Below are positions 41,740 to 60,066 of a DNA stretch of 64,000 nucleotides, piece after piece. Origin of the DNA: Vicinamibacteria bacterium (lineage in GTDB: Bacteria > Acidobacteriota > Vicinamibacteria > Marinacidobacterales > Marinacidobacteraceae); NCBI GenBank assembly GCA_965215615.1, contig OZ244068.1:1159596-1223595 (forward strand). The letters run 5' to 3'. How positions within the stretch are numbered: the stretch's first letter is position 1; the number at the start of each line of letters is the position of its first letter. The position numbers were made by a program, and so were the translations under genes. The notes beneath the pieces are model-generated. The model was not told the origin of the DNA. It searched no databases and saw only the letters and a list, made by a program, of their open reading frames with translations.

Positions 41740-44205
41740 GTGTACCGATTCCTTTTCAGATATCTGCTGGCGGTCGGGATGGCCGCCCTTCCCCTTGCGT
41801 CGGCAGCGGCGCAGGATGACGGTGCGGTGCGCGGCACCGTCACATATGCGGACACGAGTGCCCCGGTGGTGGGCGCGGTGGTCCGGATTCCCGCCAGCGG
41901 AGCGTCGGCTGCGACCGATGCCGAGGGGCGTTTCGAGATCGGCGGACTCGCCGCCGGCGACTACGAGATCGTCGTGGAGCAGGGCCTGCTCACGAGCGAC
42001 CGGCGGATGGTGTCGGTGGCTTCCGGCGAGACGACGACCGCTGACTTCCGGATTCGCTCCGGGGTTGCGGAGAGCGTCACCGTCTTCGGCCGCACCGTCG
42101 GAGATCTGGGGCTCGCCGGGCGCGCCCCGTCCGCCAGCCGGCTCGACCTGCGACCCATCGACATCCCCGCCTCGGTGGATGTGGTGGACAGCGCGGTCAT
42201 GGAGGCCCGCGGCTACCAGAAGGTCAGCGACGCAGTCGGCCGCACGGCGGGCGCGATCGTTGGCGAGCATGCCACCGCTCCCTCGTCCTTCTCGATGCGA
42301 GGCTTCACGGGTTCGCAGGTAGCCGTGCTCCGCGACGGCATCTGGCTCGGGCCGAGCCCGATGGTGATGCGCCCCCAGAACACCTTCAACCTCGCCCGGG
42401 TGGAAGTCATGCGCGGCCCGTCATCGGTGGTGAACGGTCAGGGTTCGGTGGCCGGCGCGGTCAACAGCGTCACCAAGTCCGCCGAGCCGATCGCCACGAC
42501 AACCGGGAGCGCGCTCGTTTCCTACGGCAGCTTCAACACTTCGCTCGCCGCGCTCGGAGTCACCGGCCCGATCAGCGACACGCTCTGGTACCGACTGGAT
42601 GCGAGCCGCGGCGGTTCGGACGGCTACGTGGATCGCATGGATTCCGGCTCGCTCAACCTCACCGGAAGCGTCCTGTGGCGCCCCGACCCCCGGTTCCGGT
42701 TCAAGCTGAGCGTGGATTATCTGGACGACGACCTCCCGAAATACTTCGGCACTCCGCTCGTCCCCCGCAGCTTCGCCGCCGAGCCGCTCGACGTGCTGGA
42801 TGCAGCGACCGGCGAGGCGGTTGACGGGCGGATGCGGTTTCTCAACTACAACGTGGAGGACGGATTCGCCCGTTCCGATCAGACCCTGGTCCGGGCCGAT
42901 ATCGCCTGGGATGTGAGCGACCGCGTGACCCTCAACAACATCACCTACGGATTCGATGCGATGCGCGGATGGCAGAACGCGGAGGGCTACGTCTTTTGCG
43001 CGGAAGTCGTGGACGTCTGCCAGACCGTCGGCTCCATCCAGCGCTACTACGGCTACTTCATCATCGACCACGAACAGCGGCTCTACGGGAACCGGACCAC
43101 GCTCAACCTGGAGCACGATCTCGGAGGCCTCGAAAACGATGCCGTCTTCGGTGCCGAGTTCTCGACTCTCGACTTCAAGCGGACCCGCGGTTTTCGCCGG
43201 CAGGTTCCGATTGCGCCGGGAGATGCCGTGGATCCGCTGAACCCGGTCCCCGGCGTGTATGGACAAAGGGAGCTTCGGGGCATCAGCCCCACTGCCATCG
43301 AGTCCTGGGCGGTGTTCGTGGAGGATTCGCTGGCGCTGACCGACCGCCTGCGACTCGCGGGCGGGCTGCGGTACGACGGCTTGGACCTGGACCGCAAGAA
43401 CACGAGCCCCACCGGCGAGCCGGAGGGAGGAGGCTTCGAGCGGGAATACCGGTGGTGGAGCTGGCGTGCCGGCGCGGTGCTGAACCTGCTTCCCGACCTG
43501 GTGGCGTTCGGGCAGTTCAGCAACGCCAAGGATCCGGTCAGTTCGAACTTTTTCCTGGTGAACTCCAATCAGGACTTCGACCTGACGGATACCGTCCAGT
43601 GGGAGGTGGGGGTCAAGGCCGATCTCGACAGCGGCCGCTCGCAATTGACCCTCTCCTGGTTCGACATCACCCGGGACGACGTGCTGGAGCGCTTTTCGCT
43701 CGACAGCGTGACGAACCTCGGCGGGATCGCCTCCCGGGGACTCGAATTCACGAGCGCCCTCCAGGCCGCGCCGAACGCGCGCCTCGGCCTGAATCTGGGC
43801 TACCTCGAATCGGAGTTCCGCGCCTCGCCCAACTTCGAGAAATTCGCCGGCAACCGGCCTCCCAACGTGCCGAACGTGACGGCCAATGTCTGGGCCAGCT
43901 ACGAGAACATCGCCGGGCTGCCGCTCGAGATCGGTGCTTCCGGCCGCCATGTCGGCGAGCGGTTCGCGAACAACTCCAACCAGATCGCGATGAAGGCCTA
44001 CACCCTCGGCGATGTCTATGCGTCGTGGACCCAGAGCGAGCGGGTACGCCTGACCTTCCGGGTGGACAACGTCACCGATACCGTGTACGCGGTCTGGTCG
44101 GATCCCTACTACGTGAGCCAGACCTCTCCGTCGTTCCTCTACTCGAACCAGTTGATGATCGGCGCGCCGCGGAGCTTCTCGGTCACGCTGCAGGCCGGCT
44201 TCTGA
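41740..44205 (+). CDS. TonB-dependent outer-membrane receptor with an N-terminal carboxypeptidase-regulatory-like domain.
   Basis: Signal peptide, CarbopepD_reg-like ...GTVTYADTSAPVVGAVVRIPASG...EGRFEIGGLAAGDYEI..., plug and barrel sequence, and a C-terminal ...SVTLQAGF with terminal aromatic. Start taken at GTG 41740. Confidence 0.8.
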   Translation: MYRFLFRYLLAVGMAALPLASAAAQDDGAVRGTVTYADTSAPVVGAVVRIPASGASAATDAEGRFEIGGLAAGDYEIVVEQGLLTSDRRMVSVASGETTTADFRIRSGVAESVTVFGRTVGDLGLAGRAPSASRLDLRPIDIPASVDVVDSAVMEARGYQKVSDAVGRTAGAIVGEHATAPSSFSMRGFTGSQVAVLRDGIWLGPSPMVMRPQNTFNLARVEVMRGPSSVVNGQGSVAGAVNSVTKSAEPIATTTGSALVSYGSFNTSLAALGVTGPISDTLWYRLDASRGGSDGYVDRMDSGSLNLTGSVLWRPDPRFRFKLSVDYLDDDLPKYFGTPLVPRSFAAEPLDVLDAATGEAVDGRMRFLNYNVEDGFARSDQTLVRADIAWDVSDRVTLNNITYGFDAMRGWQNAEGYVFCAEVVDVCQTVGSIQRYYGYFIIDHEQRLYGNRTTLNLEHDLGGLENDAVFGAEFSTLDFKRTRGFRRQVPIAPGDAVDPLNPVPGVYGQRELRGISPTAIESWAVFVEDSLALTDRLRLAGGLRYDGLDLDRKNTSPTGEPEGGGFEREYRWWSWRAGAVLNLLPDLVAFGQFSNAKDPVSSNFFLVNSNQDFDLTDTVQWEVGVKADLDSGRSQLTLSWFDITRDDVLERFSLDSVTNLGGIASRGLEFTSALQAAPNARLGLNLGYLESEFRASPNFEKFAGNRPPNVPNVTANVWASYENIAGLPLEIGASGRHVGERFANNSNQIAMKAYTLGDVYASWTQSERVRLTFRVDNVTDTVYAVWSDPYYVSQTSPSFLYSNQLMIGAPRSFSVTLQAGF

Positions 44206-44216
44206 CCGACCACCCC

Positions 44217-44249
44217 TGCCGGGAGCTGCCCCCTCGCGGCTCCCGGCAG
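44217..44249 (+). terminator. GC-rich hairpin after the TonB receptor gene (CTGCCGGGAGC-N11-GCTCCCGGCAG) with no U-tract. The island's left boundary follows.
   Basis: Seen directly: an 11-bp perfect inverted repeat. Confidence 0.35.
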
Positions 44250-44323
44250 GCAGTCACCCCCCCGCAGCGGGTACGGCTCGCTAGTTGAGGTAAAGACTAT
44301 ACGAAAAGTGCTATGCTTTTGGA

Positions 44324-47300
44324 ATGAATACTACTTCAGTCGATGTGAAGCACTCTGATCTGAAGGCGCTGCGCTTGCGACTCGGAACGACCCAGGCGGC
44401 ACTGGCTCGCACTGTCGGTGTTGTTCCGAACACTCTTGCCCGTTGGGAGCGTGGCGAGCTCCCGATCCCTGCCTGGGCAGTTCAGCGTCTGGAGGCTGCA
44501 TCCAGCGCCGGATCGTCTGGCCGGGCCGTCACACGTGGGGTCGTGCTCGATCCACACCACAAGGCGATCCTGGATGCGTTGAATGCTGACCTCGACCCAG
44601 CAGTATTCGAGGCTTGCGCGACAGACCTTCTTCGCTGCCGCTGGCCAACCCTCGTCGCCATTCGGGGGGGCCACGACCACGGATTCGACGGCACGGTTGC
44701 CGATCCGACAGGGCACTCAAAGTTCCCGCTCATCGCGACAACAGCCAAAGATCTGACTGGCAACCTGCGTCGGAACCTGCGTCGAGCACGAGAGTTGAAC
44801 CCGGCACTGGATCGAGCCCTGTTCGCGACATCGAGAGTTGTGACGCCGCGCATGCGAGAAAAGCTCCAAGACCAGGCGAGGGATGTGGAGGTGACACTGG
44901 TACAAATCTATGACCAGGACTGGTTCGCGCTAGAGCTATACCGGAAGCCTGAATGGTGCAAGCGCCTCCTTAGAGTGACGGGACGCCCCTCTGCCCTGAG
45001 TCAGTTCCCGAAATCACAACGGCCCGTCTTGGGGGATGAAATCCTGGGTCGCGAACGCGTCATGCGGTGGCTGCTTGAGCGTTCTGGCGATTGCCTTCTG
45101 GTGGGGTCGCCCGGCTCGGGCAAGACCTTTGTGTTGCGGGGTCTCGTGCAACAGGGGAGGGCGCTCTTCCTGGTTGACGATGATCGAACCCAGGTTGCCA
45201 ATGACTTGCGCGAGCTAAGGCCACCGGCCGTCATCCTGGATGATGCTCATGTCGATCCGGACCGGGTAGACTGGTTCAGGCATCTTCGGCAGGAAGTGGG
45301 TTCCGATGCCCGCATCATCGCGACGACTTGGCCGAGCCGAGCCTCTAAACTCAGGACCGCCTTGGGGATCAGCACCGACGACGTGCGGAATCTGGATTCA
45401 CCTGATGACCTGATCGACGCGGACACGATGATTGAAATCATCAAATCGACTGGCCTCACAGGGCCGGATGAGCTTCTCCGCTGCATTCGTCTCCAGGCAC
45501 CTGAGCGGCCTGGTCTCGTCGCAACGCTCGCGTATCTCTGTCGGGCAGGAGATTTTCGTCAAGTCGTGAGCGGAGAGGCGCTCGTTGATCAACTGGCTCC
45601 TCAACTCGAAAAAATGATCGACTCCGACGCTCTCCTACACATGTTGGCACCGTTCGCTCTGGGCGGAGATGCCGGTGTGCGCCCGGAGCGCGTTGCGGGA
45701 GCTCTCGGCAAGTCATTGTTTGATGTGTCCAAGGCTCTCGCGCGGCTTGGTCCGGCCGGGATCCTGAAGGAGTTGCCTACGGCCGCTGACACGGGCATCG
45801 CCGACGATCTCGAGGTATCGCATCAAGCAGCGCCTGTATCAGTGGTCCCGGCCCCGTTCCGCTGGGTCTTGGTGCGACGCATCTTCTTCGGTGGTGTCGG
45901 CTCGCTCCCACTCGATCGGTTCTTGGCTCTTGTGGAACGTACGGAGGATGCACTGGACACGTTGATGGGTGCTCGCGCACGTGGGGCACCGATTCCAGAC
46001 CTCGAGCATCGTCTTGAGCGCGAGGCCGCACGGCTTCCCGACCATTCGTCGTCGCGCCTCTGGTCGAAATACGCGTCGCTTGGACCATCGGAGGCGCGTT
46101 ACGTGGTGGAACGCCATCCTGATCGGCTGCCGGCGGTTGCCCACGAGGCGCTGGAGCAAGCTCCCGAAAGTGTGATTCCGTTACTGCTTGACCTCTTGTG
46201 TACGGGGGAAGATGCGAGGGTCGTGGATTCGCTACCCGAGAAGCCTTGGGAGATTTTGACCAGATGGGCCAATGGTTCGTCGCCTGGTAGGAGAGATTTG
46301 CGCCACCGGCGCTCCTCATTGCTCCATGCCGCGAACGCGTGGCGAGCTCGTGGTGGCGATCCGAATGTTGCGATTCGCGCCATGTGCATTGCACTCGCAC
46401 CAGGTTCCGACTATGTCACGGTCGATCCAGGAGCCGGTCGAACCGTGACTCTCCACCACGAGCTGCTCATTCCAAGTCATATCGAATCTCTCAAGGAGGA
46501 GCTGTGGCCGAGTGTTCGAGAGGCGATCACCGAGACGGGACGCGCACCGTGGAAAAACTTGATGGATATTGCGCGCGGATGGTTGAATCCTTTCCTTCCG
46601 TCCGGCGAAGACGTGCTCGAAGAAATCCGATTGGCCATGAGATCATTTGGAGATCGCTTGCTCCAGGACATGGCAGATGTCTCGCGAATACATCCTGGGG
46701 TTCAGCATCGACTCAAAGTAATGGCGAAGCGGGCAGGCTTGGATCTCCACGTGACGCTGGATCCAACCTTTGAGACACTTTATGGAGAACTTGAGCCAGA
46801 TGAAGTAGATGAAATGATGCGGATGGATTCAACGAACAGCCTTGTGGAAACATGGGAACGCCAATCAGTTCAAGAAATAACAAGAAAACTCAAGCAGATG
46901 GAGTCAGAGGCGAATCTGGCAGGCATTCGGCACCCTCGTTGGTCACCCTATCTGTGCGAACAACTGGCCATGCGTATCTCCAATCCGGTCGTGGTCGCCG
47001 AGTTATTCCTGGACAGCCAACTCCCGGCTGACCTTGTCGCACCCTTCATCCGTCAAGTCGTGACCATGAACGGCCCGAGGTGGCCAGAAGTGGCACGCCG
47101 GTGCCTCGGAACAGCCGACTATCAGGTGCTTGGAATCCAAGCTGTCCTTATCAGCAGTTCGCCGCCTCCTGATCTCTTGGCTACCGCTTTGGGTGTAGCC
47201 AAGTACTTCCCTCACTTGATTCATACATTTTGTCTTCGACGCGAGGTGCCACTTGGCACGCTCAAGACGATGTTCCATTCTGAGGATGCCAGAGTTGCTG

Positions 47301-48001
47301 TGGCTGCTGCTATCGGCTACTGGTGTGGTCACCGACTTGAGGCGAACGACGATTGTCCACCACCACCGGAAGGATGGCGGGAGGCGGTTCTTCGCGCACC
47401 GGCAGACGAGGCGGGGGTGTCCCAGCATGAGGAGTACTGGCTGAGCCAGGTTTTGTTGCAGGACGGGCGCTTGGCGGAGGAATGGTTGCTGTCAAAATTC
47501 GGCGAGGAAGATCACAATGCCGCATCGTGGAGTGTTGAGCAAATCGGCATCAAGATCCTTCCAGCGTTGGACACGAGACAGCGATCTCGTGTTCTGGCGG
47601 CCATGCGTCCGGGTTTCCATGGCGACGAATTCGTCAGACATCTCGTGGCGAATGATCTTGAGCTTTATCGGGAACTCCTTGGGATCGAGCACCTCGCGCC
47701 ATTTCATCTTTCGCCGCTGGCCGGCAAGCCCGACAGTACAGGTTGGCGCGCCAAGGTGAAACTCGCTCTGGCGAAGGGCTTCGCGATCGAGAAAATCACC
47801 CGAGCGACTCTCGGGCGGTGGAATTCCTGGTCAGGAAACGAAAGCGAGATGTGGGCCGGATGGCGACGCTCGTTTGCTGCGTTGATCGATGACGTCGACC
47901 ATGACGTCGCAAGCATCGGCCAGTATGGAGTCGAGATTACGAAGCGCGATGAGGATCGGACACTTATGGGAGAACGCTACGAAGCAGTACACGGCATGTA
48001 G
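44324..48001 (+). CDS. 1225-aa multidomain protein: XRE-type HTH, Mrr-like (PD-(D/E)xK) nuclease fold, P-loop NTPase, and a roughly 800-aa alpha-helical C-terminal domain. Avs/STAND-like candidate antiphage gene.
   Basis: aa 10-55 ...LKALRLRLGTTQAALARTVGVVPNTLARWERGE... (HTH_XRE). aa 95-200 FEACATDLLRC...GGHDHGFDGTV...LIATTAKD...LFATSRVVTP...VEVTLV (Mrr_cat-like). Walker A LLVGSPGSGKT and Walker B AVILDDAH. Long helical C-terminus. Locally lower GC (about 58%). Confidence 0.6.
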   Translation: MNTTSVDVKHSDLKALRLRLGTTQAALARTVGVVPNTLARWERGELPIPAWAVQRLEAASSAGSSGRAVTRGVVLDPHHKAILDALNADLDPAVFEACATDLLRCRWPTLVAIRGGHDHGFDGTVADPTGHSKFPLIATTAKDLTGNLRRNLRRARELNPALDRALFATSRVVTPRMREKLQDQARDVEVTLVQIYDQDWFALELYRKPEWCKRLLRVTGRPSALSQFPKSQRPVLGDEILGRERVMRWLLERSGDCLLVGSPGSGKTFVLRGLVQQGRALFLVDDDRTQVANDLRELRPPAVILDDAHVDPDRVDWFRHLRQEVGSDARIIATTWPSRASKLRTALGISTDDVRNLDSPDDLIDADTMIEIIKSTGLTGPDELLRCIRLQAPERPGLVATLAYLCRAGDFRQVVSGEALVDQLAPQLEKMIDSDALLHMLAPFALGGDAGVRPERVAGALGKSLFDVSKALARLGPAGILKELPTAADTGIADDLEVSHQAAPVSVVPAPFRWVLVRRIFFGGVGSLPLDRFLALVERTEDALDTLMGARARGAPIPDLEHRLEREAARLPDHSSSRLWSKYASLGPSEARYVVERHPDRLPAVAHEALEQAPESVIPLLLDLLCTGEDARVVDSLPEKPWEILTRWANGSSPGRRDLRHRRSSLLHAANAWRARGGDPNVAIRAMCIALAPGSDYVTVDPGAGRTVTLHHELLIPSHIESLKEELWPSVREAITETGRAPWKNLMDIARGWLNPFLPSGEDVLEEIRLAMRSFGDRLLQDMADVSRIHPGVQHRLKVMAKRAGLDLHVTLDPTFETLYGELEPDEVDEMMRMDSTNSLVETWERQSVQEITRKLKQMESEANLAGIRHPRWSPYLCEQLAMRISNPVVVAELFLDSQLPADLVAPFIRQVVTMNGPRWPEVARRCLGTADYQVLGIQAVLISSSPPPDLLATALGVAKYFPHLIHTFCLRREVPLGTLKTMFHSEDARVAVAAAIGYWCGHRLEANDDCPPPPEGWREAVLRAPADEAGVSQHEEYWLSQVLLQDGRLAEEWLLSKFGEEDHNAASWSVEQIGIKILPALDTRQRSRVLAAMRPGFHGDEFVRHLVANDLELYRELLGIEHLAPFHLSPLAGKPDSTGWRAKVKLALAKGFAIEKITRATLGRWNSWSGNESEMWAGWRRSFAALIDDVDHDVASIGQYGVEITKRDEDRTLMGERYEAVHGM

Positions 48002-48080
48002 CCAACGTCATCGAGCTGGGGTACCTGCACCATGGGCCTCATAGCTCGCGAAATGGCATCCGATGTCGGAACGATGGTGT

Positions 48081-48905
48081 TCACTTTTTTCGGCTATCGG
48101 TCTGCGTGGCGTATTCCCTGAGCGGCAAACGCTGCAATTCAGATGGGGCCGATGGGGCGTCTCGCAGCAGGAACAGCTCGTCATCGAGTCCGTGCCGGAG
48201 GAAATCGAGGCGTGCATTCTCGGTGGCTACGGCCTCCGCAGAGGAGAACACCGCGCGAAAGGGGAACATCCGGGGACCCGAGAGCACGTCTTTCGGCGCG
48301 CCGGCGCGGAGTTCTCGGCTTCTGAGGATCGCCTCCGCCATCCAGGCGAGGAGTTTCGGGTTTTCCATGGGGCGCGCCCCGGCTGGCGCATAGATTCCCG
48401 CACGTTTCGTCTCCGTCAGCACCTTCCATTCCACGAAGGAGCGGAGCACATATCGGGTGGCGCGCTCGACCCCCGGGCGGTCCCCGAACTCTTCCCGGAC
48501 CCGCCTTTGGATGACAGCGGCGGCGACCCGATTCTGAAGTCGGAGTTGCCGTCCGGCGTGCGCCGCGACTGCGCCCCAGAACGGGTAGGCGGCGGCCAGC
48601 ATGCACCAGTGAAGCGCGATCCGATGGGATGCGGGCGAATCCCGCAACAGTCGCAATCCGTCGTCACGGAGCGACTCCAGTCCGGTCGGAACGAGTTGCC
48701 AAGTCCTGATGAGCACGCCGATTGTCTTCATCCGGCCATTCCCGTGGGCTTTCCCGCCTGGAGAGATCTGATCCTGGAGAAAACGGTCGAGTGTGTCGCG
48801 GATTGCTTTCGTGTCGTTTCCCGTCAGCACCAGGCTCGCGGTTTCCTCAAGCCATGGGAGTCGGACGAGTCGGCTGATGCCGACCTTGCGCGCCAGATCC
48901 CTCAC
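48081..48905 (-). CDS. BrxA-like accessory protein (assigned by position as the last gene of a BREX type 3-like operon).
   Basis: Alpha-helical 274-aa protein. ATGA overlap with the pglZ stop. The assignment rests on synteny only, with no sequence motif recognised. Confidence 0.4.
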   Translation of the reverse strand: MRDLARKVGISRLVRLPWLEETASLVLTGNDTKAIRDTLDRFLQDQISPGGKAHGNGRMKTIGVLIRTWQLVPTGLESLRDDGLRLLRDSPASHRIALHWCMLAAAYPFWGAVAAHAGRQLRLQNRVAAAVIQRRVREEFGDRPGVERATRYVLRSFVEWKVLTETKRAGIYAPAGARPMENPKLLAWMAEAILRSRELRAGAPKDVLSGPRMFPFRAVFSSAEAVATENARLDFLRHGLDDELFLLRDAPSAPSELQRLPLREYATQTDSRKK

Positions 48906-50881
48906 GAGGCCGTCCTTCGGATACGGACAAGGGGCACGATGAGTTCCTCGATCGCAGCACCTCCGTGGCAGACGACACTCTCTTCCTTCGCCACGAACGC
49001 TTTCCGTTCCGGCGCGAGCAAGGGAATGAAGTCGGAGGGGAGGCCGGGAGGCACCCAGCGCGCGGAGTCCGGAAACCGGGCTTTGACGGCATTTCGGAGC
49101 GTTTCGTCCGCGAAGATGCGGACGCGCTCTCCGCGGACGTTCGCGAAAACACCTTCAGCGGGAGAGCCGATCCCTTCGGCTTCGATGTTGCCGTGGTCGC
49201 TGGTGAGCCAGATTTCGAACCCCGCCCGCAACAGCAGGTCGAGAAGTTTGACGAGGAATCCTTCGGCCGCCCACTGGCGGACCTGGTTTGCCATGCCTCG
49301 CTCGCCGAGCTGCATGCCGTGCATGATGTCGTCCACGGCGTTCACTACCCATGCCAGCGCCTGGATCTCCTCGTTTGCGAGAAGGGTCTCCGCTTCCCCC
49401 AGCGAGGCAGGCTTGAGATTTCGCTGATAACCGATCTGCTGAGGTCGCAGTCCGCGATCCTGCCAAAAACGCCGCCAATGCCTGGGTTCGGCCGAGGTGG
49501 ACTGGATCGTGTCTCCGAAGAAGTATGGGGGCCGCCCCGCAAACAGCGCCTGACGCGAAACCACTGTCAGGGTTGGCAGCCAGGCGAAGATGGCATCCTC
49601 TTCGAGCTGGAGACCCGGGAGCGTCCCGAGTAATTTCTCGCGAAGCAGTCTCCACTGCCAGAGCGAGAGTCCGTCAAGGACGAGGAGCGCCACCCTCGTG
49701 TTCCGGGTAGCCAGTGCGCCGGGGACATGGTGGAGCATGACTGGCGGAACAGGCGGCAGACTCGCGAGGGATCCGTACTGGTTCGGCAGCCAGTCGGCGA
49801 ACGCGGCATCCACTTGGCGCTCCATTTCGCGAAACCCTTGGCGAACTGCATCTTCCCGTTCGTCCTCAGTGAGGAGATTCGCTCGGGTTTCGGCCCAGGC
49901 GCGGGCGAAGTGCCGCCAAGCGTGGTGGTCCGCGTCCTCGGCGGGAAAGAGTTCTTTCGCGAGCTCCAGACGGCGCTCCGTCAGCGGCCTTCCGGCAGGA
50001 GAGGCGATCCCAGCCGCGGCCCATGTTTCTTCTGATGACGGTTGGTAGGGATGCTCGACGGGAGAGAGGGAGCCTTCCAGGAAGAAGGTATCGAGGTAGG
50101 CCCGGACCCGGGAATCGTCGAACGGAATCTCCGTCGGCCCCGCCATGGCGAGTGGGGGGCGGTCGCCTGATATCCGATCGGAATCGCGCTGGTCGAGGAA
50201 GCGGGGCCAGCGCTCCTGGATGAAATGGAGAAACACCTTCCGATCTCCGACCAGATCAGCAAGCGGCCACTCCTGGAACTGCTGCTTTCGACGCAATCGG
50301 CGCGCAAGCCTCGTCTGGAAGCTCGGGGGAATCGGTCGGTTCCGGTAATGGAGAGCAGCGAGGAGAGCCAGCAGGTCCGCATCGTCGTGGGCATCTTCCG
50401 GGTCGGCCTCGAAAATGCGACGCAGGAGAAAGTCCCGGCTCTCGTTGTCGCCGAGAGATTTCCGACCCGCCTCGTCCTGAATTTCGAAGAGCGATTCCCG
50501 GTCGGTGGGAGCGAGCTCGCGGACGACTCCGCCGCTCAGGCGCGGGAAGAATTCCTCGATGCGGAGGGAAACCCACTCGGCATGGTCCGTGAGATCGAAG
50601 GGCGGTGCGGACGCATCATCTTCCACGACCACCACGAGGTCTGGACGATTTTTCGAATCCCCGAGAGCTCGAATCTGTGTTTCGTAGGCGAAGCGAAAGG
50701 CGATGGGGTCGCCGTCGAGAAAGAGAATCCGGAAGCCGCGCCGCTCCAATGCGCCGAGAATCCCCGCATCGCGAAGCAGGCCGTCGGGATCCTCGGCCAC
50801 AGTTGGCCACGCGAGGCCCGGAATGAACCGGCGGAGGATGGCGGCGGCGAGCGGACGGCCGGGTTCCGGGCCGTTCGTCAC
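48902..50881 (-). CDS. pglZ: BREX PglZ (alkaline-phosphatase superfamily).
   Basis: ...ALLVLDGLSLWQW... and ...WLTSDHGNIEA... are hallmark PglZ motifs. GTG start overlaps the methyltransferase stop (GTGA). The upstream part of ORF ..51007 is rejected. Confidence 0.8.
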   Translation of the reverse strand: MTNGPEPGRPLAAAILRRFIPGLAWPTVAEDPDGLLRDAGILGALERRGFRILFLDGDPIAFRFAYETQIRALGDSKNRPDLVVVVEDDASAPPFDLTDHAEWVSLRIEEFFPRLSGGVVRELAPTDRESLFEIQDEAGRKSLGDNESRDFLLRRIFEADPEDAHDDADLLALLAALHYRNRPIPPSFQTRLARRLRRKQQFQEWPLADLVGDRKVFLHFIQERWPRFLDQRDSDRISGDRPPLAMAGPTEIPFDDSRVRAYLDTFFLEGSLSPVEHPYQPSSEETWAAAGIASPAGRPLTERRLELAKELFPAEDADHHAWRHFARAWAETRANLLTEDEREDAVRQGFREMERQVDAAFADWLPNQYGSLASLPPVPPVMLHHVPGALATRNTRVALLVLDGLSLWQWRLLREKLLGTLPGLQLEEDAIFAWLPTLTVVSRQALFAGRPPYFFGDTIQSTSAEPRHWRRFWQDRGLRPQQIGYQRNLKPASLGEAETLLANEEIQALAWVVNAVDDIMHGMQLGERGMANQVRQWAAEGFLVKLLDLLLRAGFEIWLTSDHGNIEAEGIGSPAEGVFANVRGERVRIFADETLRNAVKARFPDSARWVPPGLPSDFIPLLAPERKAFVAKEESVVCHGGAAIEELIVPLVRIRRTAS

Positions 50882-53649
50882 TGCAGGTTTCTGCGGGTGA
50901 GCGCCTGGTCGTACCACATGAGGAGCTTCGGATCCTCGTGGAGGGCGTTCCGCGGAATCTTGTCTCCTACGGCGAGGATGGTCGCGTCGTCCTTTTTCTG
51001 CCAGCACTCCCGGAAACCGGCGCGGACCGCTTCGAGACGGACCGTGCGGAGATGCCGGGTCTCATCCGATGCGTACCGTCGGAATTCGCGGAGGAGTGCC
51101 CGCTGGCGAAGCATTTCCAATTCCGGCGCTTTCGTTGCGTCCGGGGGATACCAGCGGTGATTCGCCTTGTGCCGTAGCTCGCTGGCTTCCTTGGGCAGTT
51201 TCCTGAGATTCTTGAAGGTCGTGGAGAGCCAGGAGTGGATTAGGCCGGGCACCGGGCCATCGCCTTCGTAGCAGAGGAAGTTCTCTTCGAGCAGGCGCGA
51301 GAGTTCGAGCTGGGTCTCGTGCTTGGCCCAACCACCGATCTCGCGGATGAAGTTCGGGTGAAGCTCCTGGAAGGTCTGCGGTTTCCGCTTGAGTTCGGAA
51401 CGCAGCCAGCGGATCGCGGTTTCCTCGTCTCGCACGACGACGTTCGGCTCGAAAATTCCTTGTGCCCGGAAACGGCGCGTGTCGTAGCGGGGAACCTGCT
51501 CGGGCAGGAAGAACATCCCGTCACGCTCGGGGTAACGCTTGCGGAGCCCGGCGTAGAAATCCGTGGCCGAAAGCGGAACGCTGACTCCGCGCTGGACGTG
51601 GAACGCCACCATGCGGTCGAAGAGCAGAAAGTCCTGCCGCTCCTGCATGACTTCGCTGCGGCCTTCCCGGTCGGCGAAGACAGGCAGGCGAGCGAGGTGG
51701 GCTTCGACGAACTCCCAGGCCCCGCCTTCGGTTCCCCCGACGACGCGGAAGCGCTCTTCCAGTCCACCGTTCGGTTTGTAGGCAGAGATGACGAGATCCT
51801 GCTTGGCAGCGGTGTTGACCGCTTGCTGAAAGGATTTTTGTTTTTTATCCAGTGTGCGGACATCGGCAACGATGAAGCCGGCTGCGCGCATGGCATCCTG
51901 GATGGAATTCCAGACGGCGTTTCTGGAGTTGTGAAAGACAACGGTGATCCAGCGACCCGGCTTGAGAACTCTTCGATATTCCTCGAAACACTGCTCCATC
52001 AGGTGTTTGTAGTCGAGGATTTCCTTGTTTCGAACTCGATCCACGATGGCCTCGGGTGCAGCCTGCGTAAGGACACCGTGCCACGACTCGACGAGGAAAT
52101 TCAGGTCCGCGTAGTAGATATTTTCTCCGAAAGGGGGATCCGTGAATATGTAGTCCACGGAGTTTTTGGGCAGATTCAAAGAGGCGCAGTCTCCGGTAGA
52201 CGCGACGACGGGAGATTTCGCTGGTCCCACCGCCAAGGCTTTGGCCATTCGATGTAGCTTGCCACGGAGGATGTACCACGGATTTACTTCGGCGACTTGA
52301 GAAGAGATATATAAGACTCCAGATAAATATTGGTTAACGTGTGAGTAATGTGTGGGACTGTAACGATTGAGTGTCGACATTCCCCACACTGCCTGTTCGA
52401 TGAGAAACAGCAAGGCGTGTCGAAGTCGAGGATTTTCTTCGGATGTCACTCGATGCCACACAGAGGCGAGAGCGTGTGCTGCCCGTGGCAGGAACATATG
52501 GCGTACAGCGCGGGTGTTCGTGGTTCGCATGCGGCCCACGCGCGTCATCTGGCAGTCGGGCAGTTCTGCTTCCGGAATCTCGGCAGGGAGGGGAAGCGCG
52601 TTGATGCGTTGAAGCAGCTCCAGGTCTTCGGGGTTGGGCTTCTTCTCGAATTTGTCCACGCCATAGTTGATCAGGGCGGGTTTGCGCAGTGGCCTGCGTC
52701 CGGTTTGGCCGGTTGCCGAATCCAGGAAAGTCTCGAACCGAAGATCCATTTTTTCTTTCGTGTTCCTGACTTCGCACTTAGGACATGGGATCGTCTTTCG
52801 AATGGCTTTCGTTTCCGCATCCATGGCCTCCTCGAGGAAAACAATCTCGGCACCGCAATCCGGACACGCGAACACCTCGCTCCACACCGTGTAGTTGATG
52901 CGCGCTTTCGTCCCGTCGGTGTGGCGGGTTTCGTACATCCACCCGACTTCTTCTTCCACTTCGTCCAGCAGCTTCTGCGCGGCATCGGCAAACTCCTTGA
53001 CATCGAACGGGATGTTGTAGTTGGCCGCGATGAAGGTGGCCGCGGGGGAGAGGTCGCCGAGGATGGCCCGGCGCGCTCCCCATTCGGGAAGCTCGCGCCC
53101 GGCGGCGGCCCATTCGGCTTCCAGTTTCTTCCGATACTCCGGAGGCGCGCTGCCGCACCACTGCGCCGCAACGCCGGTCATTCCGGAACCGCAGAAGCCA
53201 TCGAGCACCAGATCGCCCGGCTTCGTGTAGTGGAGGATGGAGGGGACGATGGCGAGGTGCGGCACCTTGGTGTGGTACCCGTGTGCCCGGTAGAGGGCAT
53301 CCGTCTTGCCGACGCTCACGTCCACCGCGAAGGGCTCGCGGTGGTACGGCTCCTCGGGATCGTAAGGATGCCCGTGGAACCGCACGAACTCTTCGAGGAA
53401 CGGGTTTGGACACGCGGTATACCACGGCGGATCGGAAAGCCGCAGGATGTCTTCGTCGCTGCCCTTCGGAAAGTCGGGGCGCGTCCGCAGTTCGGGGAGC
53501 AACTCCCGCAGGCGCTGGAGGTAGTGCTCCCGCCGCTCGTCCTCGGAAGCGAAAGTCCGCCCCAGGCACTTCACCGGGCCGCTCTCCGGTTTCGGTTTCG
53601 TGGATTGGTCAGTCGCGAGGAGCTTCCCCGACTCCGGGCTTCGTGTCAC
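50878..53649 (-). CDS. BREX-associated DNA methyltransferase, alpha-class N6A/N4C (PglXI-like position), with a Zn-ribbon insertion.
   Basis: Motif I ...LVLDGFCGSGMTGVAA... about 340 aa before motif IV ...IFTDPPFGENIYYADL.... The intervening region carries CPDCG...CPKC. About 430-aa C-terminal extension. Confidence 0.7.
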   Translation of the reverse strand: MTRSPESGKLLATDQSTKPKPESGPVKCLGRTFASEDERREHYLQRLRELLPELRTRPDFPKGSDEDILRLSDPPWYTACPNPFLEEFVRFHGHPYDPEEPYHREPFAVDVSVGKTDALYRAHGYHTKVPHLAIVPSILHYTKPGDLVLDGFCGSGMTGVAAQWCGSAPPEYRKKLEAEWAAAGRELPEWGARRAILGDLSPAATFIAANYNIPFDVKEFADAAQKLLDEVEEEVGWMYETRHTDGTKARINYTVWSEVFACPDCGAEIVFLEEAMDAETKAIRKTIPCPKCEVRNTKEKMDLRFETFLDSATGQTGRRPLRKPALINYGVDKFEKKPNPEDLELLQRINALPLPAEIPEAELPDCQMTRVGRMRTTNTRAVRHMFLPRAAHALASVWHRVTSEENPRLRHALLFLIEQAVWGMSTLNRYSPTHYSHVNQYLSGVLYISSQVAEVNPWYILRGKLHRMAKALAVGPAKSPVVASTGDCASLNLPKNSVDYIFTDPPFGENIYYADLNFLVESWHGVLTQAAPEAIVDRVRNKEILDYKHLMEQCFEEYRRVLKPGRWITVVFHNSRNAVWNSIQDAMRAAGFIVADVRTLDKKQKSFQQAVNTAAKQDLVISAYKPNGGLEERFRVVGGTEGGAWEFVEAHLARLPVFADREGRSEVMQERQDFLLFDRMVAFHVQRGVSVPLSATDFYAGLRKRYPERDGMFFLPEQVPRYDTRRFRAQGIFEPNVVVRDEETAIRWLRSELKRKPQTFQELHPNFIREIGGWAKHETQLELSRLLEENFLCYEGDGPVPGLIHSWLSTTFKNLRKLPKEASELRHKANHRWYPPDATKAPELEMLRQRALLREFRRYASDETRHLRTVRLEAVRAGFRECWQKKDDATILAVGDKIPRNALHEDPKLLMWYDQALTRRNLQ

Positions 53650-55481
53650 GGAGCGTCTGATCCTTTCCGCTGGAGCCGTTCCGCCCGGATCGCTGCGCCG
53701 GCCTCGGTGAGCACATATCGCTGGTCGGGCGCACGAGGGCGACCCGGATTCGTCATCCGCACGATTCCGGCATCGAGCAGCGGTTGCAGGTGGGTGCGCT
53801 TGAAGTAGGAGCGGTGTGACGCGCCCAGCCGCTCCATGAGCTCGGCCATGCTCTGCGGGGTCTCGCAGGCACCCACGATCTGAAGTTGTGGGTTCGTCAG
53901 CGCCGACCCGGTCCCTGCCCGAGTGGCCCAGGTAGCCTGATTTTCGCTTACTTGGTCACTCCCCGAGTGACCAAGTAGCTCCTGCCCACAGCTTGCTTGG
54001 TCACTCCTGGAGTGACCAAGTAGTTCCCGCAGATGTCTGGCGGGCCGGTAGTGACCCTCGGCGATCTCCTCAAAGAGCTGCTGGTTCACGAGGCGAGCCG
54101 CCGCCACGCTCGCCTCTTTACGGGTTACGCCGGCGATGACCTGTAGATCCGACAGCGGAAGAGAGGTCCTTCCAACTGCGTAATCCACCATCCGGGCTTC
54201 GGTGTCGTCAAGGTCCACTCCCAGCCGCTGCTCGAACGCCTGCCGTCGTTCTGCGAGCGATACCTGCTCCAGGACCAGCTCGAATCGCTTCCTTCGTCTG
54301 TTGTTCACGATCCGGGGTGGCGGACGGTCCAGTTTCCGCCAGTTGCCGAACATGTCGCGCAACCCCCAGCCGGCGTTTTCGGACATTCCGATCCGGCGGA
54401 AAGCCAGCACGACCCGCGGGTTTCGCTGCTCCTTCTCCCCCGGCTCCAGCAGGTGGGAAGGAGCAACGAAGGCATCTCCCGGATTTCGGAAGATGATCTG
54501 ATTCGGGAAATGGAGGATCTCCGGGTTCCGGCCATGGTCCGAATAGTCCTGGTGCATGATGAGGTTGATCATGGCTTCACGGATCGCGACGAAGTCGGGT
54601 GGCGTGTCGTCCCGGCGAAGCGTGTACGGATCCACCCGGAAGGGGTATTCGGCGATTCGCGGATACCAGGTTTCGACAAGAGAACGCCAGGTGAGGATCA
54701 GGTTGTCATCCATGACCAGGCGATCGAACCAGCGGTCTCCAGTGGCGATTTCATCCCGCGGCATTCCGAAACGCTGGCAGTCCACGACGGGCCGGGGAAG
54801 CAACGAGCGAAACGCTCCGGCAGTTCCGAACAGCAGGACCGCCGCCCGCGTCGAGACGAGTCGCCCCTGGTCGTCGTCCAACAGGCCCAGTTCCCGCAGG
54901 AATTCCAGGTCGTTAAGCCGTTTGAGCGGACGGTTGTCGGTACGTGCCTCGTACACAGCGCGGTACCACCGCAGGCTGTCCTCGTCGAACGCCCGGTCCG
55001 GATCGAGAGGCACCGGCTGGCTTTCCCACCGCTCGGCGGCCGCGTCCACGAGGAAGCGGTCGCGCTCGGCATCAGTGAGCCGGACATCGCTTCCTCCGCT
55101 GCGGACGAAGGCGCGCCGGATGTCGCCGTCGAGGAATACCGGCTTTTCGGACCGGTGGGCTTCGGGGACGTGGAAGATGAGCAGATCCTTGCCCCCGTGG
55201 CGCGCGAGTTGTTCCCGGACGGGGAGTAGCACGCTGATCTTGTTTCGTTGGCGAAGGGTGCTCAGGAAATCGCCCTGCACCTTGTCCACATCGAGCACGC
55301 CGACGACTTCGAGCCCCCCATCGGCCTCGCGAACCCCGAAGACGAGCCGTCCGCCTTCGGTGTTCGCGAAAGCGGAGACCGTTTCGTATGCGTTCCCTGG
55401 AACCTCGCGGCGAGCCTCTTTGAACTCGATGTCGCGCCACTCGTAGGAACCGAGCAGTTTCGCGAGTTCCTGCTGCGTCAC
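53646..55481 (-). CDS. AlbA_2 (Schlafen-like putative DNA-binding) plus HATPase_c_4-like protein inserted in the BREX operon.
   Basis: N-terminus ...YEWRDIEFKEARREVPGNAYETVSAFANTEGGRLVFGVRE... is typical of AlbA_2/'divergent AAA' family proteins. No Walker A. The C-terminus contains a duplicated ELLGHS(R/G)SDQ segment encoded by a palindromic DNA repeat. Confidence 0.55.
   Translation of the reverse strand: MTQQELAKLLGSYEWRDIEFKEARREVPGNAYETVSAFANTEGGRLVFGVREADGGLEVVGVLDVDKVQGDFLSTLRQRNKISVLLPVREQLARHGGKDLLIFHVPEAHRSEKPVFLDGDIRRAFVRSGGSDVRLTDAERDRFLVDAAAERWESQPVPLDPDRAFDEDSLRWYRAVYEARTDNRPLKRLNDLEFLRELGLLDDDQGRLVSTRAAVLLFGTAGAFRSLLPRPVVDCQRFGMPRDEIATGDRWFDRLVMDDNLILTWRSLVETWYPRIAEYPFRVDPYTLRRDDTPPDFVAIREAMINLIMHQDYSDHGRNPEILHFPNQIIFRNPGDAFVAPSHLLEPGEKEQRNPRVVLAFRRIGMSENAGWGLRDMFGNWRKLDRPPPRIVNNRRRKRFELVLEQVSLAERRQAFEQRLGVDLDDTEARMVDYAVGRTSLPLSDLQVIAGVTRKEASVAAARLVNQQLFEEIAEGHYRPARHLRELLGHSRSDQASCGQELLGHSGSDQVSENQATWATRAGTGSALTNPQLQIVGACETPQSMAELMERLGASHRSYFKRTHLQPLLDAGIVRMTNPGRPRAPDQRYVLTEAGAAIRAERLQRKGSDAP
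53950..54023. repeat. Two tandem copies (46-bp period) of a 28-bp palindromic element CTTGGTCACTCC(CC/TG)GAGTGACCAAGTAG inside the AlbA_2/HATPase gene.
   Basis: Seen directly: copies at 53950..53977 and 53996..54023. Each copy is a perfect 11-bp-arm inverted repeat. In frame, it encodes ELLGHSRSDQ...ELLGHSGSDQ. Confidence 0.8.
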
Positions 55482-55485
55482 CGTT

Positions 55486-58400
55486 TCACTCCAGGACGAT
55501 GCGGACTTTCCCGGGAGATCGCCCTTGGGTCAGATCCCGAACGTACCCGTCCATCCGCTCTCGTAGTTGATCGGGGGTCGCCGGGACTCCTCCGGGGAAC
55601 AGGGCCTTTGCCATCAATTCCCGGGTGGTCGTGACTTTTTCGAGACCCCGCAGGGCGGACCGGATCGCTTCGATCAGCGAGTCTTGGGATCTCCGGGGAA
55701 GTTGCCGGGATTCGAGCGTTTTGATGAATGCGTCGATCGCGGCCTGCTGTTCGGTGGAGAGCAGCGTCCGACTCTTCTGGACGATGGGATCTCCAAGACT
55801 TGTCAACAGGGTTTCGATCCAGCGAGTAACGAGCTGATCGAGATCCCGTTCGAGATTGTCGAGGCTCGACTCCACCGCAACCGTAACCGTGGATTCTGCC
55901 CCGATGCGGAAGGAGCAGTGAGGACAGATCGGGTTCTTCTCGAAGTCCTGGGAAGTTGGCCCCGCGCACTCCCGCAGGCCCCTCAGGCCCGACTCGATGT
56001 CCACGAGATCCTGCCGCCGCAGCAGTTCGATTTCGGCAAGCCGCGAGAGCGTCCGCAGTCGTTCGTGCCGGAGGAGTTCGTCCCGTCGCGCCGCTTCCTT
56101 GGATCCCAGCCGCGCCTGACGATGGGCGGTCAGATACAGAGCCTCGTAGTCCTTCCGGAGTGCTCCGAGTCGGGTCTGGAAATCCCGGTGGAATGTCGGG
56201 TCGGTCCGATTCGCCGGCTGGCGGGCCGCAGTCAGGAATTCCTGCTGGGCCTTGCGGGCGGGAGCGATCCAGGAATGGTCCGCTGGCAGCGCGAAGAGTG
56301 CCTCGGAAAGCCAGGCGGCCGTTCGCTGAAACAGCATGGCGAGGCGGGAGATTGCATCCACTTCGGTTCGCGCGGCGAGTCCGGATTCGTGAGCCTTCAC
56401 CGCATCCGCTTCGTGGCGAAAGTTCTTGAACTTCGCCGGTGTGTTGAAGACCTGGAGGGATTCGAGAAATGCCCTGGTTTTCCCCACCGCCTCGTCGAGG
56501 CTCTCTGCTTCTCCTGCCTCAAAGAGGCTTTCGCCCCAAAGCAGGACTCGCCGGTGGATCGCTTCTCCGGCTCGGGCCAGAGCCTCGACCTGCTCCGCGA
56601 TGGCTTTCTGGATTTGCTGGACGGCTTCGTTTCTGGCCTTCGTTACCTGAAGTGCCACCCCGGCGGGCAGGCCCAGCATCTCCACGAGCGCCGTGATGCC
56701 GGGGAGGTTCCAGTCCTTGGGGCGGGCGAAGTGCTGGAAGGCCCGTAACTCGGACAAAGGAGTGACCGCAAGGTCGGAGAGGTTCAGCGCGTCACATTTG
56801 CGGCCGCCCGGCAGCGTCAGAACCACGTGTCCGGAGTGGACGAGGGCGGCCAGCAGCACGACGACCCAATCCGGCTCGAGCCGCATGCCGCCGTGATCGA
56901 AATACTCGACATCCCGCACTTTCTCGACCAGTACTTCATCCCTGCCCACGACTTGTGCCGCGGGTTTGGCGTGCAGGATTTCCAGCACGGCTTTCGCGTA
57001 GCGAGACGAATCCGGCCGAATGTCTCCTCCCACCAGGAGTTCAAGCCCGGCGAGGATCGCCCGGGCCTGACGGGTCGGCTGCCGCCCGGCGATCATTCCC
57101 AGAGCGTCCCGGGCCGCTTGTTCGCGACTGTCCTTCGTGATGAGAACACCGAAGGTCGGGTAATCCGGAGCGGTGTCGCGAAAATGTGCTTCGAGGCAGA
57201 TCGGAGCAACGGCATGCACCACGTCGGAGAAGGGGATGCGCTCCTCGGGATTGGTACCCGAGAGGTTTCGGATGGAACGTCCTCTCGCCCATGCGCCCAT
57301 CTTCGCATTCCGCCCCGCGCAGGTCACGTGGTAGCAGTCGAGCATGTTTTTTCGCAGGAGTACCCCAAGCTCCCGGAGGGACTCCTCGGCCTTGTCCTGG
57401 TAGATCCGCTTGTGAGCACCGGACGACTGCGCCGCGAGGGCCTCCGCTCCGGCGAAGCGGGCGATCGCCTCCCGAAGCCCTTCGGCCGTGAGGTCGAGGC
57501 GGAAAAACACCTCGTCAGCCTTCTTCTCGTCGGTGAAGCGGGGAGGTTCGAACGGTTGCAGGAAGTAGAGGTAGAAGTCGCGGGGAGGGGCTGCGGTCGA
57601 ACGTTCGTTGGGAGCTCCGAAGAAGAGATAGCCGGGGCGCTCCGTGTTCCGCTCGGCCCAGGTCAACTGGTGCTCCCATATCCGGAACCCGGGCACATGG
57701 GCTTCATCCTCCCGGACGTCCATGAGCCGGATCAGCGCCCGGTAGTAGTAGCGGTCGAGCTGGGAATGGTCGAGACTTTCGGCGCGCGCTTTGATCAGGG
57801 CATCGAAGTCGTCCGTCTTGCGGAGATCCAGGTAGTACTGGCCGTTCCGGGGATTTTCGGTGATGAACTGGCCGCTGACCGTGCGGTGGATTTCGCGCAC
57901 TGCCGTCGCGACCATGGTCTCGAGGTCCAGCGCCGGATCCCCCCCGAGTTCTTCGACACCGGGCTGGTAGAGGCAAAGCGCGTCCCGAAGTTCGGCGGGG
58001 GCGGCTCCGATGCTCGCGTGGATGTCTCCGGTTGTCAGCCGATGGACCGAGAGGGCGTGGATGATCCGGATCGCGAGAGGCTCGTATTGCCGACGGGAGT
58101 AGGCATTCCGGACCCGGGATTCGAGGACTTCACTACAGCGGATGACCTCCCGAATGTCGGGAATGGCTCGAAACGAAGCGTTTGCGGTCAAGGTCTCCCA
58201 ATAGCTGTCGTAGGCCACGAGGCCAGGCTCGGATTCGGGAACTTCGACATCGAGCATCGCCGCCATCGCCAGCGAGAACGTCTTCAGGACTTCCCGCTTC
58301 TCCACGACGGCAAGCCGCTCGAAGGTCCTGATGAAGTCCGGGTGGATGGGAAAGAGGGCGACGTACTCGTCAAGCGATTCGTTGAGGCGGCCGTAGAACT

Positions 58401-59750: not shown

Positions 59751-59772
59751 GGGAAGGGGCGGAGAGTATCCG

Positions 59773-60033: not shown

Positions 60034-60066
60034 GGTTTCAGTGGACTGTCCTGTGGGGAGCGAACC

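Follow-up and report, generated by a model that had tools for sequence, protein, structure and literature searches.

A probable Avs-type anti-phage sensor with an Mrr-like domain and a fused XRE-type HTH, encoded beside a type-3 BREX system

The window, the 64,000-nt stretch of Vicinamibacteria bacterium DNA analysed here, encodes at 44324-48001 (+) a protein that is probably a single-protein, NLR-like (Avs-type) anti-phage sensor from a large unnamed STAND clade, independent of BREX and equipped with an HTH that most likely serves to repress its own promoter. The best structural matches of the protein are Avs4, Avs5 and plant NLRs.

Gene and domain architecture

The 1225-aa ORF is uninterrupted, and we regard the gene as real and intact; its reading as a pseudogene or relic was rejected because the frame is intact and all family-invariant residues are kept. 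Because close homologs open with MKH[SA]ELKALR in sequence comparison, translation may truly begin with the GTG at 44345 (V8), not the ATG at 44324. The gene is convergent with the BREX-like operon, as the earlier note had described, with brxA (48081-48905, -) on the opposite strand and 79 bp between the stop codons. A sigma-70 promoter scan of 44000-48300 found none, and a terminator scan gave matches at chance level only. The locus comprises the following features.

44297..44327, +, degenerate operator remnant, two overlapping imperfect sites inside the 44-bp AT-rich stretch
44324..48001, +, complete HTH/Mrr-like/STAND/alpha-solenoid CDS, 1225 aa counting from the annotated start
44345..44503, +, XRE-type HTH, aa 8-60; recognition helix PNTLARWERGE, invariant across the HTH clade
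44504..44545, +, Ser/Gly-rich flexible linker, aa 61-74; pLDDT <50 for aa 63-74
44546..44989, +, Mrr-like PD-(D/E)xK-fold domain, aa 75-222; non-canonical conserved site E96, D118, D122, T139, T140, N147, T169
45041..45403, +, P-loop NTPase core, aa 240-360; Walker A GSPGSGKT at 45104-45127, Walker B VILDD within 45227-45244
45404..45883, +, helical module (GxP-like RPGL, P396-G397), then winged-helix, aa 361-520; STAND 'ARC'-like region
45884..47998, +, alpha-solenoid, aa 521-1225, about 40 helices and one beta-hairpin; presumed sensor, model mean pLDDT 87.6

The gene shares a 15.8-kb, low-GC island with a BrxHII-less type-3 BREX system. Its GC content is 0.589 versus 0.670 in the window outside the island, a drop of 8 points and not the 10 first estimated, and its GC3 is 0.62 versus 0.86 in the TonB-receptor gene upstream. 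These values are consistent with a foreign origin, and the gene was probably acquired by horizontal transfer, as had been proposed. The AT-rich region noted 5' of the gene corresponds to the 44 bp preceding the ATG, at 39% GC.

The N-terminal XRE-type HTH read from the letters alone scored above the Pfam gathering thresholds at aa 13-56 (HTH_31, 29.3 bits against a cut-off of 27; HTH_3, 28.6 against 23). All the motifs quoted for the nuclease and NTPase regions were found: FEACA (E96), GGHDHGFDG (D118, D122), IATTAK (T139, T140, K142), FATSR, the Walker A LLVGSPGSGKT (aa 258-268) and the Walker B AVILDDAH (aa 302-309). Both Walker motifs are invariant in the family, an NB-ARC-like 'RIIATTW' strand comes after Walker B, and helical and winged-helix modules follow, the organisation of a STAND NTPase. 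The ARC-like region, where P396, G397 and L398 are invariant in the family, was assigned from secondary structure, pLDDT and similarity in structure to NB-ARC, Apaf-1 and Avs. No Pfam STAND model matched at its gathering score; below threshold, matches across members were to AAA_16 (21/21), nSTAND3 (20/21), nSTAND5 (16/21) and NACHT (15/21). A literature search on nSTAND5 found nothing relevant.

The helical repeat region, put at roughly 800 aa by the earlier note, is predicted to be an all-alpha solenoid of about 700 aa (705 residues). Its structural matches were generic HEAT/ARM only, making it HEAT/ARM-like rather than TPR-like, and no likeness to solved Avs sensors was found. With 36-38% identity versus 56-59% in the N-terminal domains, the solenoid is the fastest-evolving part of the protein, a sensor-like pattern of evolution.

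In Avs proteins a STAND module is joined by an effector and a sensor; KpAvs2 employs a nuclease of the Mrr family as its effector, and the DNases Avs3 and Avs4 are activated by phage (PMC11564622). Like EcAvs4 (PDB 8dgf), KpAvs2 and SeAvs3, the window protein has an N-terminal PD-(D/E)xK-type domain, a central STAND NTPase and, at the C-terminus, a long helical sensor; also as in Avs, it is a single-gene system of defence islands with a sensor that evolves faster than the remainder. Unlike Avs, it has an added XRE-HTH with a conserved operator and an Mrr-like site without a conserved lysine, and its sensor matches no solved one. Domain order and structural match agree with the Avs architecture proposed earlier, but the Avs/AVAST models of PADLOC (Avs1-5) left the window protein unmatched at E<=1 and nine HTH-less relatives unmatched at E<=0.01.

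Of 24 family members, 20 gave a match to Pfam Mrr_cat (PF04471) across aa 72-222 (best E=1.8e-5), supporting the PD-(D/E)xK fold predicted for residues 60-210. In hhalign, the FE, GDGGIDG, QAK and FITTS motifs of E. coli Mrr fall in register, and motif order and spacing agree with E. coli Mrr and Mrr_cat (FE helix, G-x-D-x-G-x-D-G, strand to x-Q/T-x-K, F-x-T-[ST]). Unlike in E. coli Mrr, the (E/Q) of (E/Q)xK is replaced by an invariant Thr, an extra invariant Asn (N147) is present and the lysine position varies (K, E, S, T, Q, R). The window protein has K142, its motif reading D122...T140-A-K142, but among 149 family representatives just 42 have lysine at this canonical catalytic position. The domain has the fold assigned to it, whereas the reading of the ATTAK lysine as the catalytic one is weakened, and canonical catalysis is uncertain. 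E96, D118, D122, T139 and N147 are near-invariant in the family and therefore indicate a functional pocket. Nuclease activity of the domain is plausible; the 'effector' could also be non-catalytic, or work by an unusual mechanism.

These features bear on a very unlikely reading, in which the protein would be a modification-dependent, Type IV-like restriction enzyme whose NTPase motor and Mrr-type nuclease act against modified phage DNA and complement BREX in the manner of BrxU or GmrSD. The Mrr_cat homology, the frequency of methyltransferase-based systems among the neighbours of homologs and the occurrence of GmrSD-type Type IV enzymes as BREX companions (reported in PMC12839542) all speak for it. 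However, Pfam detected no Mrr_N-like or SRA-like modified-DNA reader in the protein, the N-terminus being an XRE HTH in place of the DNA-reader domain of Mrr; the D...(E/Q)xK catalytic motif of Mrr_cat is incomplete; the NTPase is STAND-like, neither McrB-like nor helicase-like; and a fast-evolving solenoid of 700 aa is characteristic of receptors that sense proteins.

The HTH and its putative operator

The earlier note had treated the HTH as an addition to the architecture, and most of the wider family indeed lacks it: HTH-less relatives begin just past the linker, at about residue 70. By sequence, the HTH-fused form is a sub-clade of the larger family. Nearly all HTH-fused homologs have a CTATAC-N5-GTATAG palindrome about 35-45 bp 5' of the start codon. 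Its TATAC-N5-GTATA core is perfect in 17 of 22 HTH-type loci (at -32 to -44), carries 1-2 mismatches in a further four and is missing from all five HTH-less loci. Each locus has a single such site, located at the promoter of the gene itself. The palindrome also stands ahead of many small stand-alone HTH genes with the same recognition helix.

The structure of the HTH resembles the known autorepressors Aca10, HigA2 and C.Kpn2I. As in autoregulatory XRE-HTH repressors (Aca, HigA antitoxins, R-M C-proteins), the palindrome lies in the gene's own promoter region; unlike in those systems, the repressor and its presumed target, a 1150-aa STAND enzyme, are joined in cis as one protein. The stand-alone versions of the HTH precede integrase genes, and a HipBA-like origin of these small relatives was rejected because tyrosine integrases, not HipA, lie downstream. 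The pairing of operator and HTH is conserved and implies autoregulation: most likely the HTH represses its own promoter through the palindrome, a binding that we infer from this pairing. This likely autoregulatory role of the HTH via a conserved operator was absent from the earlier note.

At the window locus itself, the best TATAC-N5-GTATA match in the remnant has three mismatches. The left half of one site, CTATACgaaaaGTGCTA, is still perfect; the other, CTATGCttttgGAATGA, occupies the position homologous to that of the palindrome at locus L001 and overlaps the annotated ATG. A search for other copies in the window, for instance at the BREX promoter, gave a single 3-mismatch match at 60917, which is at chance level. 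Autoregulation may be inoperative in this copy, and the gene is perhaps less tightly repressed because its operator has decayed.

A conserved operator for the HTH would also suit a signal-sensing transcription factor of the STAND class, as exemplified by MalT and AfsR, in which the HTH is the output and the Mrr-like domain a non-catalytic DNA- or ligand-binding module. The variable catalytic lysine points the same way, as do the HTH-STAND-TPR-LuxR proteins of loci L031 and L053, which carry the same HTH type at their head. We nevertheless consider this quite improbable, since most of the family lacks the HTH yet retains the Mrr-like, STAND and solenoid domains, the operator is single and self-directed, the near-invariant residues mark a functional pocket, and the genomic context is one of defence islands and mobile elements with no conserved regulon.

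Family, neighbourhood and relation to BREX

The family comprises 1153 clusters (50% identity, E<=1e-30). Full-length homologs of the protein number more than 316, with identities of 42-72%. No model in Pfam, NCBIfam or PADLOC names it. The NCBIfam search returned HTH and P-loop noise only, and PDB sequence searches with the protein, a full-length profile and a nuclease-domain profile gave only generic HTH and P-loop matches. A tblastn search of PLSDB plasmids found no match. Matches in IMG/VR were to the HTH only, which indicates that phages do not typically carry the gene.

Homologs sit in defence islands and mobile elements. Their neighbours include type I R-M, GmrSD, AbiE and BrnTA; HigBA and methyltransferases; an Mrr gene with a methyltransferase; HEPN_AbiU2, an integrase and ArdC; and IS elements and relaxases. 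Against the published null, in which a random gene has a probability of 0.0153 of falling within 5 kb of a defence system (PMC13581612), as few as four independent defence matches in 28 contexts give p~8e-4 in a binomial estimate, and homologs are enriched beside known defence systems (R-M, GmrSD, AbiE, toxin-antitoxin, HEPN, BREX and BREX-related, BR, systems).

Eight of 31 contexts adjoin a type-3 BREX system (the window, L006, L010, L011) or a DUF1156/DUF499 BR system (L007, L013, L082, L175). The homologs concerned occupy at least five separate places on the protein tree, and, judged from that tree, the juxtapositions arose several times independently. In all four BREX cases the neighbouring system is the variant that lacks BrxHII and contains Schlafen. 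The gene begins 4 nt past the HEPN-DUF499 gene in L082 and L013, which looks operonic, and in L011 it lies 3' of brxA on the same strand, the only co-directional case; it is convergent in the window, L006 and L010. PMC12839542 describes repeated recruitment of auxiliary PD-(D/E)XK nucleases, ATPase fusions included, by BREX and BR loci.

These observations support a reading that we hold to be rather unlikely, namely an auxiliary or backup effector coupled to BREX-type methylation, for example a guard that fires on BREX/BR inhibition or a nuclease that BREX lacks. Against it, none of 49 informative type-3 BrxA loci from metagenomes has a homolog within 6 kb, and BREX is missing from the surroundings of the closest relatives (67-72% identity). 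The window gene is convergent and so not co-transcribed with BREX, the BREX promoter has no operator copy nearby, GC differs (0.589 versus 0.627 for BREX), and part of the signal is explicable by general defence-island clustering. The earlier suggestion of a functional partner of BREX is, on the first two of these counts, not supported as an obligate relation; the co-occurrence check it called for gave recurrent adjacency to BREX or BR (8/31) but no regular presence in or next to type-3 BREX operons (0/49; 4/31). The BREX link is recurrent but optional, and the gene and BREX are separate modules that tend to co-localise. Like the BREX/BR auxiliary nucleases of PMC12839542, the gene encodes a PD-(D/E)xK-ATPase fusion directly beside core genes in several lineages; unlike them, it is absent from most type-3 BREX loci and lies mostly away from BREX. 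The available text of that paper neither names nor describes the family.

Proposed mechanism and significance

As an Avs-type sensor, the protein would rest as a monomer. By analogy with Avs, the fast-evolving solenoid would bind a phage-derived ligand, most likely a protein, and this would allow the STAND NTPase to exchange its nucleotide and oligomerise. The oligomer would gather the Mrr-like domains, which, if catalytically competent, would damage DNA and abort the infection. Within the sub-clade, the XRE-HTH would sit on CTATAC-N5-GTATAG over its own promoter region and keep a potentially toxic protein low.

A more speculative and improbable extension takes the Mrr-like/STAND/solenoid family to be a surveillance module that BREX and BR systems have recruited repeatedly and that senses phage counter-measures or the failure of its neighbour. 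Its E-D-D-T-N pocket, without the lysine, would be an unusual nuclease or a ligand sensor, and in the HTH sub-clade oligomerisation would free the operator for a feed-forward burst of expression.

With 589 STAND clades, 684 sensor clusters and at least 90 sensor families associated with defence in a 2026 census (PMC13581612), another Avs-like family is unsurprising in itself. New here are the HTH-linked palindrome, the lack of conservation of the canonical Mrr lysine across the family and the recurrent but optional adjacency to BREX/BR. The near-invariant polar pocket without the textbook lysine raises the question whether effector domains of this kind always act as nucleases, and at least five separate landings beside BREX/BR bear on the backup of nuclease-poor BREX systems. 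A STAND immune receptor with its own repressor domain and 17-bp operator offers a handle on how toxic NLR-like proteins are kept safe. For this large, entirely unannotated family, a dedicated model would better the defence annotation of environmental genomes.

The gene, its island and its family

The Avs-like protein is encoded by an unbroken 1225-aa ORF (44324-48001, +) containing every motif the earlier note had listed, and the observation of a lower-GC multidomain gene beside a BREX-like operon was confirmed. The GC deficit, put at about 10 points below the flanks, held in direction, with 58.9% measured for the gene versus 67.0% in the rest of the window beyond the island; GC3 was 0.62 versus 0.86 in the TonB-receptor gene directly upstream. 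The AT-rich region reported before the gene was also recovered, the 44 bp preceding the ATG having 39% GC. The low-GC island spans approximately 44280 to 60035, bordered by the TonB-receptor gene and a transporter-like membrane protein (ORF 60067-61539). A perfect 11-bp inverted repeat without a T-run (CTGCCGGGAGC ... GCTCCCGGCAG, 44216-44249), just past the TonB-receptor stop codon, is the last high-GC feature ahead of the island. As the note had described, the BREX operon faces the gene, lying downstream on the opposite strand.

Genes of the BREX operon
59232-59750, -, BrxF
55486-59361, -, BrxC / DUF6079
53646-55481, -, Schlafen-AlbA_2 / HATPase_c_4 / wHTH protein
50878-53649, -, PglXI
48902-51007, -, PglZ
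48081-48905, -, BrxA

This operon (48081-59750, -) is of type 3 and lacks the BrxHII helicase, which occurs in 77% of type-3 systems (PMC12839542). Directly upstream of brxF, an 86-aa HigA-like XRE-HTH ORF (59773-60033, -) marks the right edge of the island and is a candidate for the operon's own regulator; the ORFs of 50 aa or more in 59750-60450 included no HigB-like partner. GC falls to 0.54-0.55 at 51900-52700 within the PglXI methyltransferase gene, which may reflect a swapped target-recognition region. As called mechanically, the PglXI and PglZ ORFs share 130 nt (50878-51007); the PglZ model match starts only at aa 56, so PglZ probably has its true start downstream of the called one.

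A word-indexed search returned more than 316 full-length relatives with 42-72% identity, called 'helix-turn-helix domain-containing protein' where named, and an exhaustive profile search covering 1.84 billion cluster representatives recovered 1153 proteins (E<=1e-30). Among the 150 best of these, most are 1105-1140 aa long and start at profile position 69-71, without the HTH and linker, so the HTH-fused form is one sub-clade within a large Mrr-like/STAND/solenoid family that lacks annotation. The HTH-less members are named 'hypothetical protein' and matched no PADLOC family. Family members come from scattered hosts (Vicinamibacterales, Spirochaetia, Pseudomonadales, Dehalococcoidia, Polyangiales and Caldilineaceae MAGs), and neither IMG/VR viral contigs nor PLSDB plasmids yielded a copy.

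Mrr-like domain, NTPase and solenoid

Pfam placed HTH_31 and HTH_3 at aa 13-56, both over gathering scores. In an AlphaFold2 model of aa 1-545 (48 homologs, mean pLDDT 77.9), an HTH of four helices is joined by a disordered Ser/Gly linker (aa 63-74) to an alpha/beta domain at aa 75-215; a P-loop alpha/beta core follows at aa 245-360, then a helical bundle and finally a winged helix.

The alpha/beta domain had been assigned the Mrr catalytic fold. The window protein itself stays under the Pfam Mrr_cat threshold, and PADLOC gave a weak match to a REase-TIR pAgo-associated model (aa 90-203). Mrr_cat matched 20 of 24 family members over aa 72-222 (best E=1.8e-5), and a profile-to-sequence alignment to E. 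coli Mrr, whose probability was low owing to the single-sequence template, was in register motif for motif (family/E. coli Mrr: FE/FE, GGHDHGFDG/GTGDGGIDG, IATTAK/VYVQAK, LFATSRVVT/VFITTSGFT). These matches make the fold assignment sound; reading the domain as catalytic is not, as the lysine is variable. Across 149 representatives of the wider family, E96 (134 E, 10 Q), D118 (145), D122 (148), T139 (148), N147 (148) and T169/S170 are near-invariant. The position matching Mrr's lysine is K in 42 of the 149 and otherwise E, S, T, Q or R, and that matching Mrr's Q is Thr, Val or Ile. The window protein reads D122...T140-A-K142, which resembles the PD...SxK variants of Cfr10I-type enzymes, where an acidic residue comes from another helix. 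Nuclease activity is thus possible, though the motif does not allow activity to be inferred.

No Pfam model reaches threshold at sequence level for the NTPase. Weak matches recurred among 21 diverse members to AAA_16 (21/21), nSTAND3 (20/21, best 3e-5), nSTAND_NTPase5 (16/21, best 8e-6) and NACHT (15/21), and the NTPase/ARC-like region keeps invariant Walker A and B motifs and an invariant GxP-like RPGL motif. We conclude that this is a STAND-class NTPase of a clade without a model of its own. The C-terminal model (aa 520-1225, pLDDT 87.6) is an alpha-solenoid of about 40 helices and one beta-hairpin. Its structural matches were only generic HEAT/ARM proteins (importin-beta, CAND1, PP2A-A; E~1e-3, low TM), with no solved Avs sensor among them. 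Identity to relatives is 36-38% at the C-terminus where the N-terminal domains show 56-59%, a faster divergence that would be expected of a sensor.

The N-terminal HTH and its palindrome

Aligning the homologs' upstream regions revealed a palindrome, CTATAC-N5-GTATAG, with the core TATAC-N5-GTATA. Of 22 HTH-type loci, 17 match this core exactly and four more have 1-2 mismatches to it. The palindrome lies 32-44 bp upstream of the start codon where the start is confidently placed, and was absent from all five HTH-less loci examined. A perfect match in a 60-bp window is expected by chance at about 1e-5 per locus, estimated from base composition. Because the surrounding DNA cannot be aligned between clades, the palindrome itself is under selection.

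The recognition helix PNT[LV]ARWERGE is invariant in HTH-type members, and many small stand-alone HTH genes (60-76 aa) carry the same helix and palindrome together. In loci L022-L061 (e.g. L026 9950-11456, L036 9989-11426), small HTH genes with NTVARWERGE are immediately followed by a tyrosine integrase, apparently a widespread module of integrative elements that pairs a regulator with an integrase; carriers are Binataceae, Acidobacteriota and 'delta proteobacterium' MAGs. The same HTH type heads HTH-STAND-TPR-LuxR proteins (L031 3105-5741, L053 992-3547), upstream of which no palindrome was found. These Chloroflexota proteins of about 850-880 aa (also in L057, L071 and L059) join the N-terminal HTH to a STAND NTPase (AAA_16/NB-ARC/NACHT matches), TPR repeats and a C-terminal LuxR/GerE HTH, and are MalT-like regulators with two DNA-binding domains. 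For the HTH-fused sub-clade, the simplest reading is that it took up a mobile-element repressor module that would shut down its own promoter.

Upstream of the window gene there is no match to the 17-bp palindrome with three or fewer mismatches, and the best core match carries three. gaCTATACgaaaaGTGCTATGCttttgGAATGAat retains one perfect half-site and the full site's positional homolog, with three core mismatches and overlapping the annotated ATG. The site has thus decayed here, at the left edge of the island, and as the closest relative (L087, 72% identity) has a perfect palindrome, the decay is recent.

BREX-class neighbours and an Avs-like reading

The earlier note had left the gene as either independent or a BREX partner. 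Searching homolog loci with the window's BREX proteins, we found BrxHII-less, Schlafen-containing type-3 BREX adjoining the homolog in three loci: L006 and L010, convergent as in the window, and L011, where the homolog follows brxA at a distance of 132 bp and shares its strand. Other homologs adjoin BREX-related DUF1156/DUF499 systems. An HTH-less homolog ends a DUF1156 ... HEPN-DUF499 gene string in L082 (4619-11402) and L013 (6664-13444), starting 4 nt past the HEPN-DUF499 gene, which in L082 suggests co-transcription; the system lies immediately downstream in L007 and divergent in L175. In L175 (4210-8001), the gene divergent from the homolog encodes a SNF2 helicase-nuclease (NOV_C) of BREX-related type that carries a separate, different XRE-HTH at its N-terminus, and the 165-bp spacer holds a one-mismatch operator and a separate ATTGCAAT palindrome.

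BREX or BREX-related systems were adjacent in 8 of 31 contexts, window included, at no fewer than five separate places on a distance tree. No BREX was found near the six closest relatives examined, whose neighbours were type I R-M, GmrSD, AbiE and BrnTA; HigBA and methyltransferases; IS elements; an Mrr gene; and HEPN_AbiU2 with integrase and ArdC. Reciprocally, a type-3 BrxA profile picked out 80 metagenomic loci; of the 49 that extended 1.5 kb or more past brxA, none carried a homolog within 6 kb. No operator copy was found near the window's BREX promoter. These results make the gene an independent module, one that has come to lie beside BREX-class systems repeatedly; an obligate link is not supported, and functional coupling is possible. 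The co-localisation fits the reported recruitment by BREX and BREX-related loci of auxiliary PD-(D/E)XK nucleases, ATPase fusions included (PMC12839542).

Avs proteins combine an effector, a STAND module and a long sensor; KpAvs2 relies on a nuclease of the Mrr family, and Avs3 and Avs4 act as DNases once activated by phage (PMC11564622). PADLOC models did not place the window protein in Avs1-5. A 2026 STAND census (PMC13581612) has Mrr-bearing STANDs among its seeds, so the clade may be listed there; neither 'HTH' nor 'helix-turn-helix' occurs in its main text. By architecture, fold and context, the protein probably works like an Avs or bacterial NLR-like receptor, differing from known Avs in a cis-fused putative autorepressor with operator, an Mrr-derived pocket without a conserved lysine and a HEAT-like sensor. 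The interpretation originally proposed is partly supported: the Avs-like architecture held up, canonical Mrr catalysis is not supported, and the nuclease step is the least secure link. We consider it fairly likely that the gene was acquired horizontally and encodes a self-regulated, Avs-like sensor for abortive infection: the protein would sense phage and trigger abortive infection, and its N-terminal HTH would repress the gene's own promoter through the palindromic operator.
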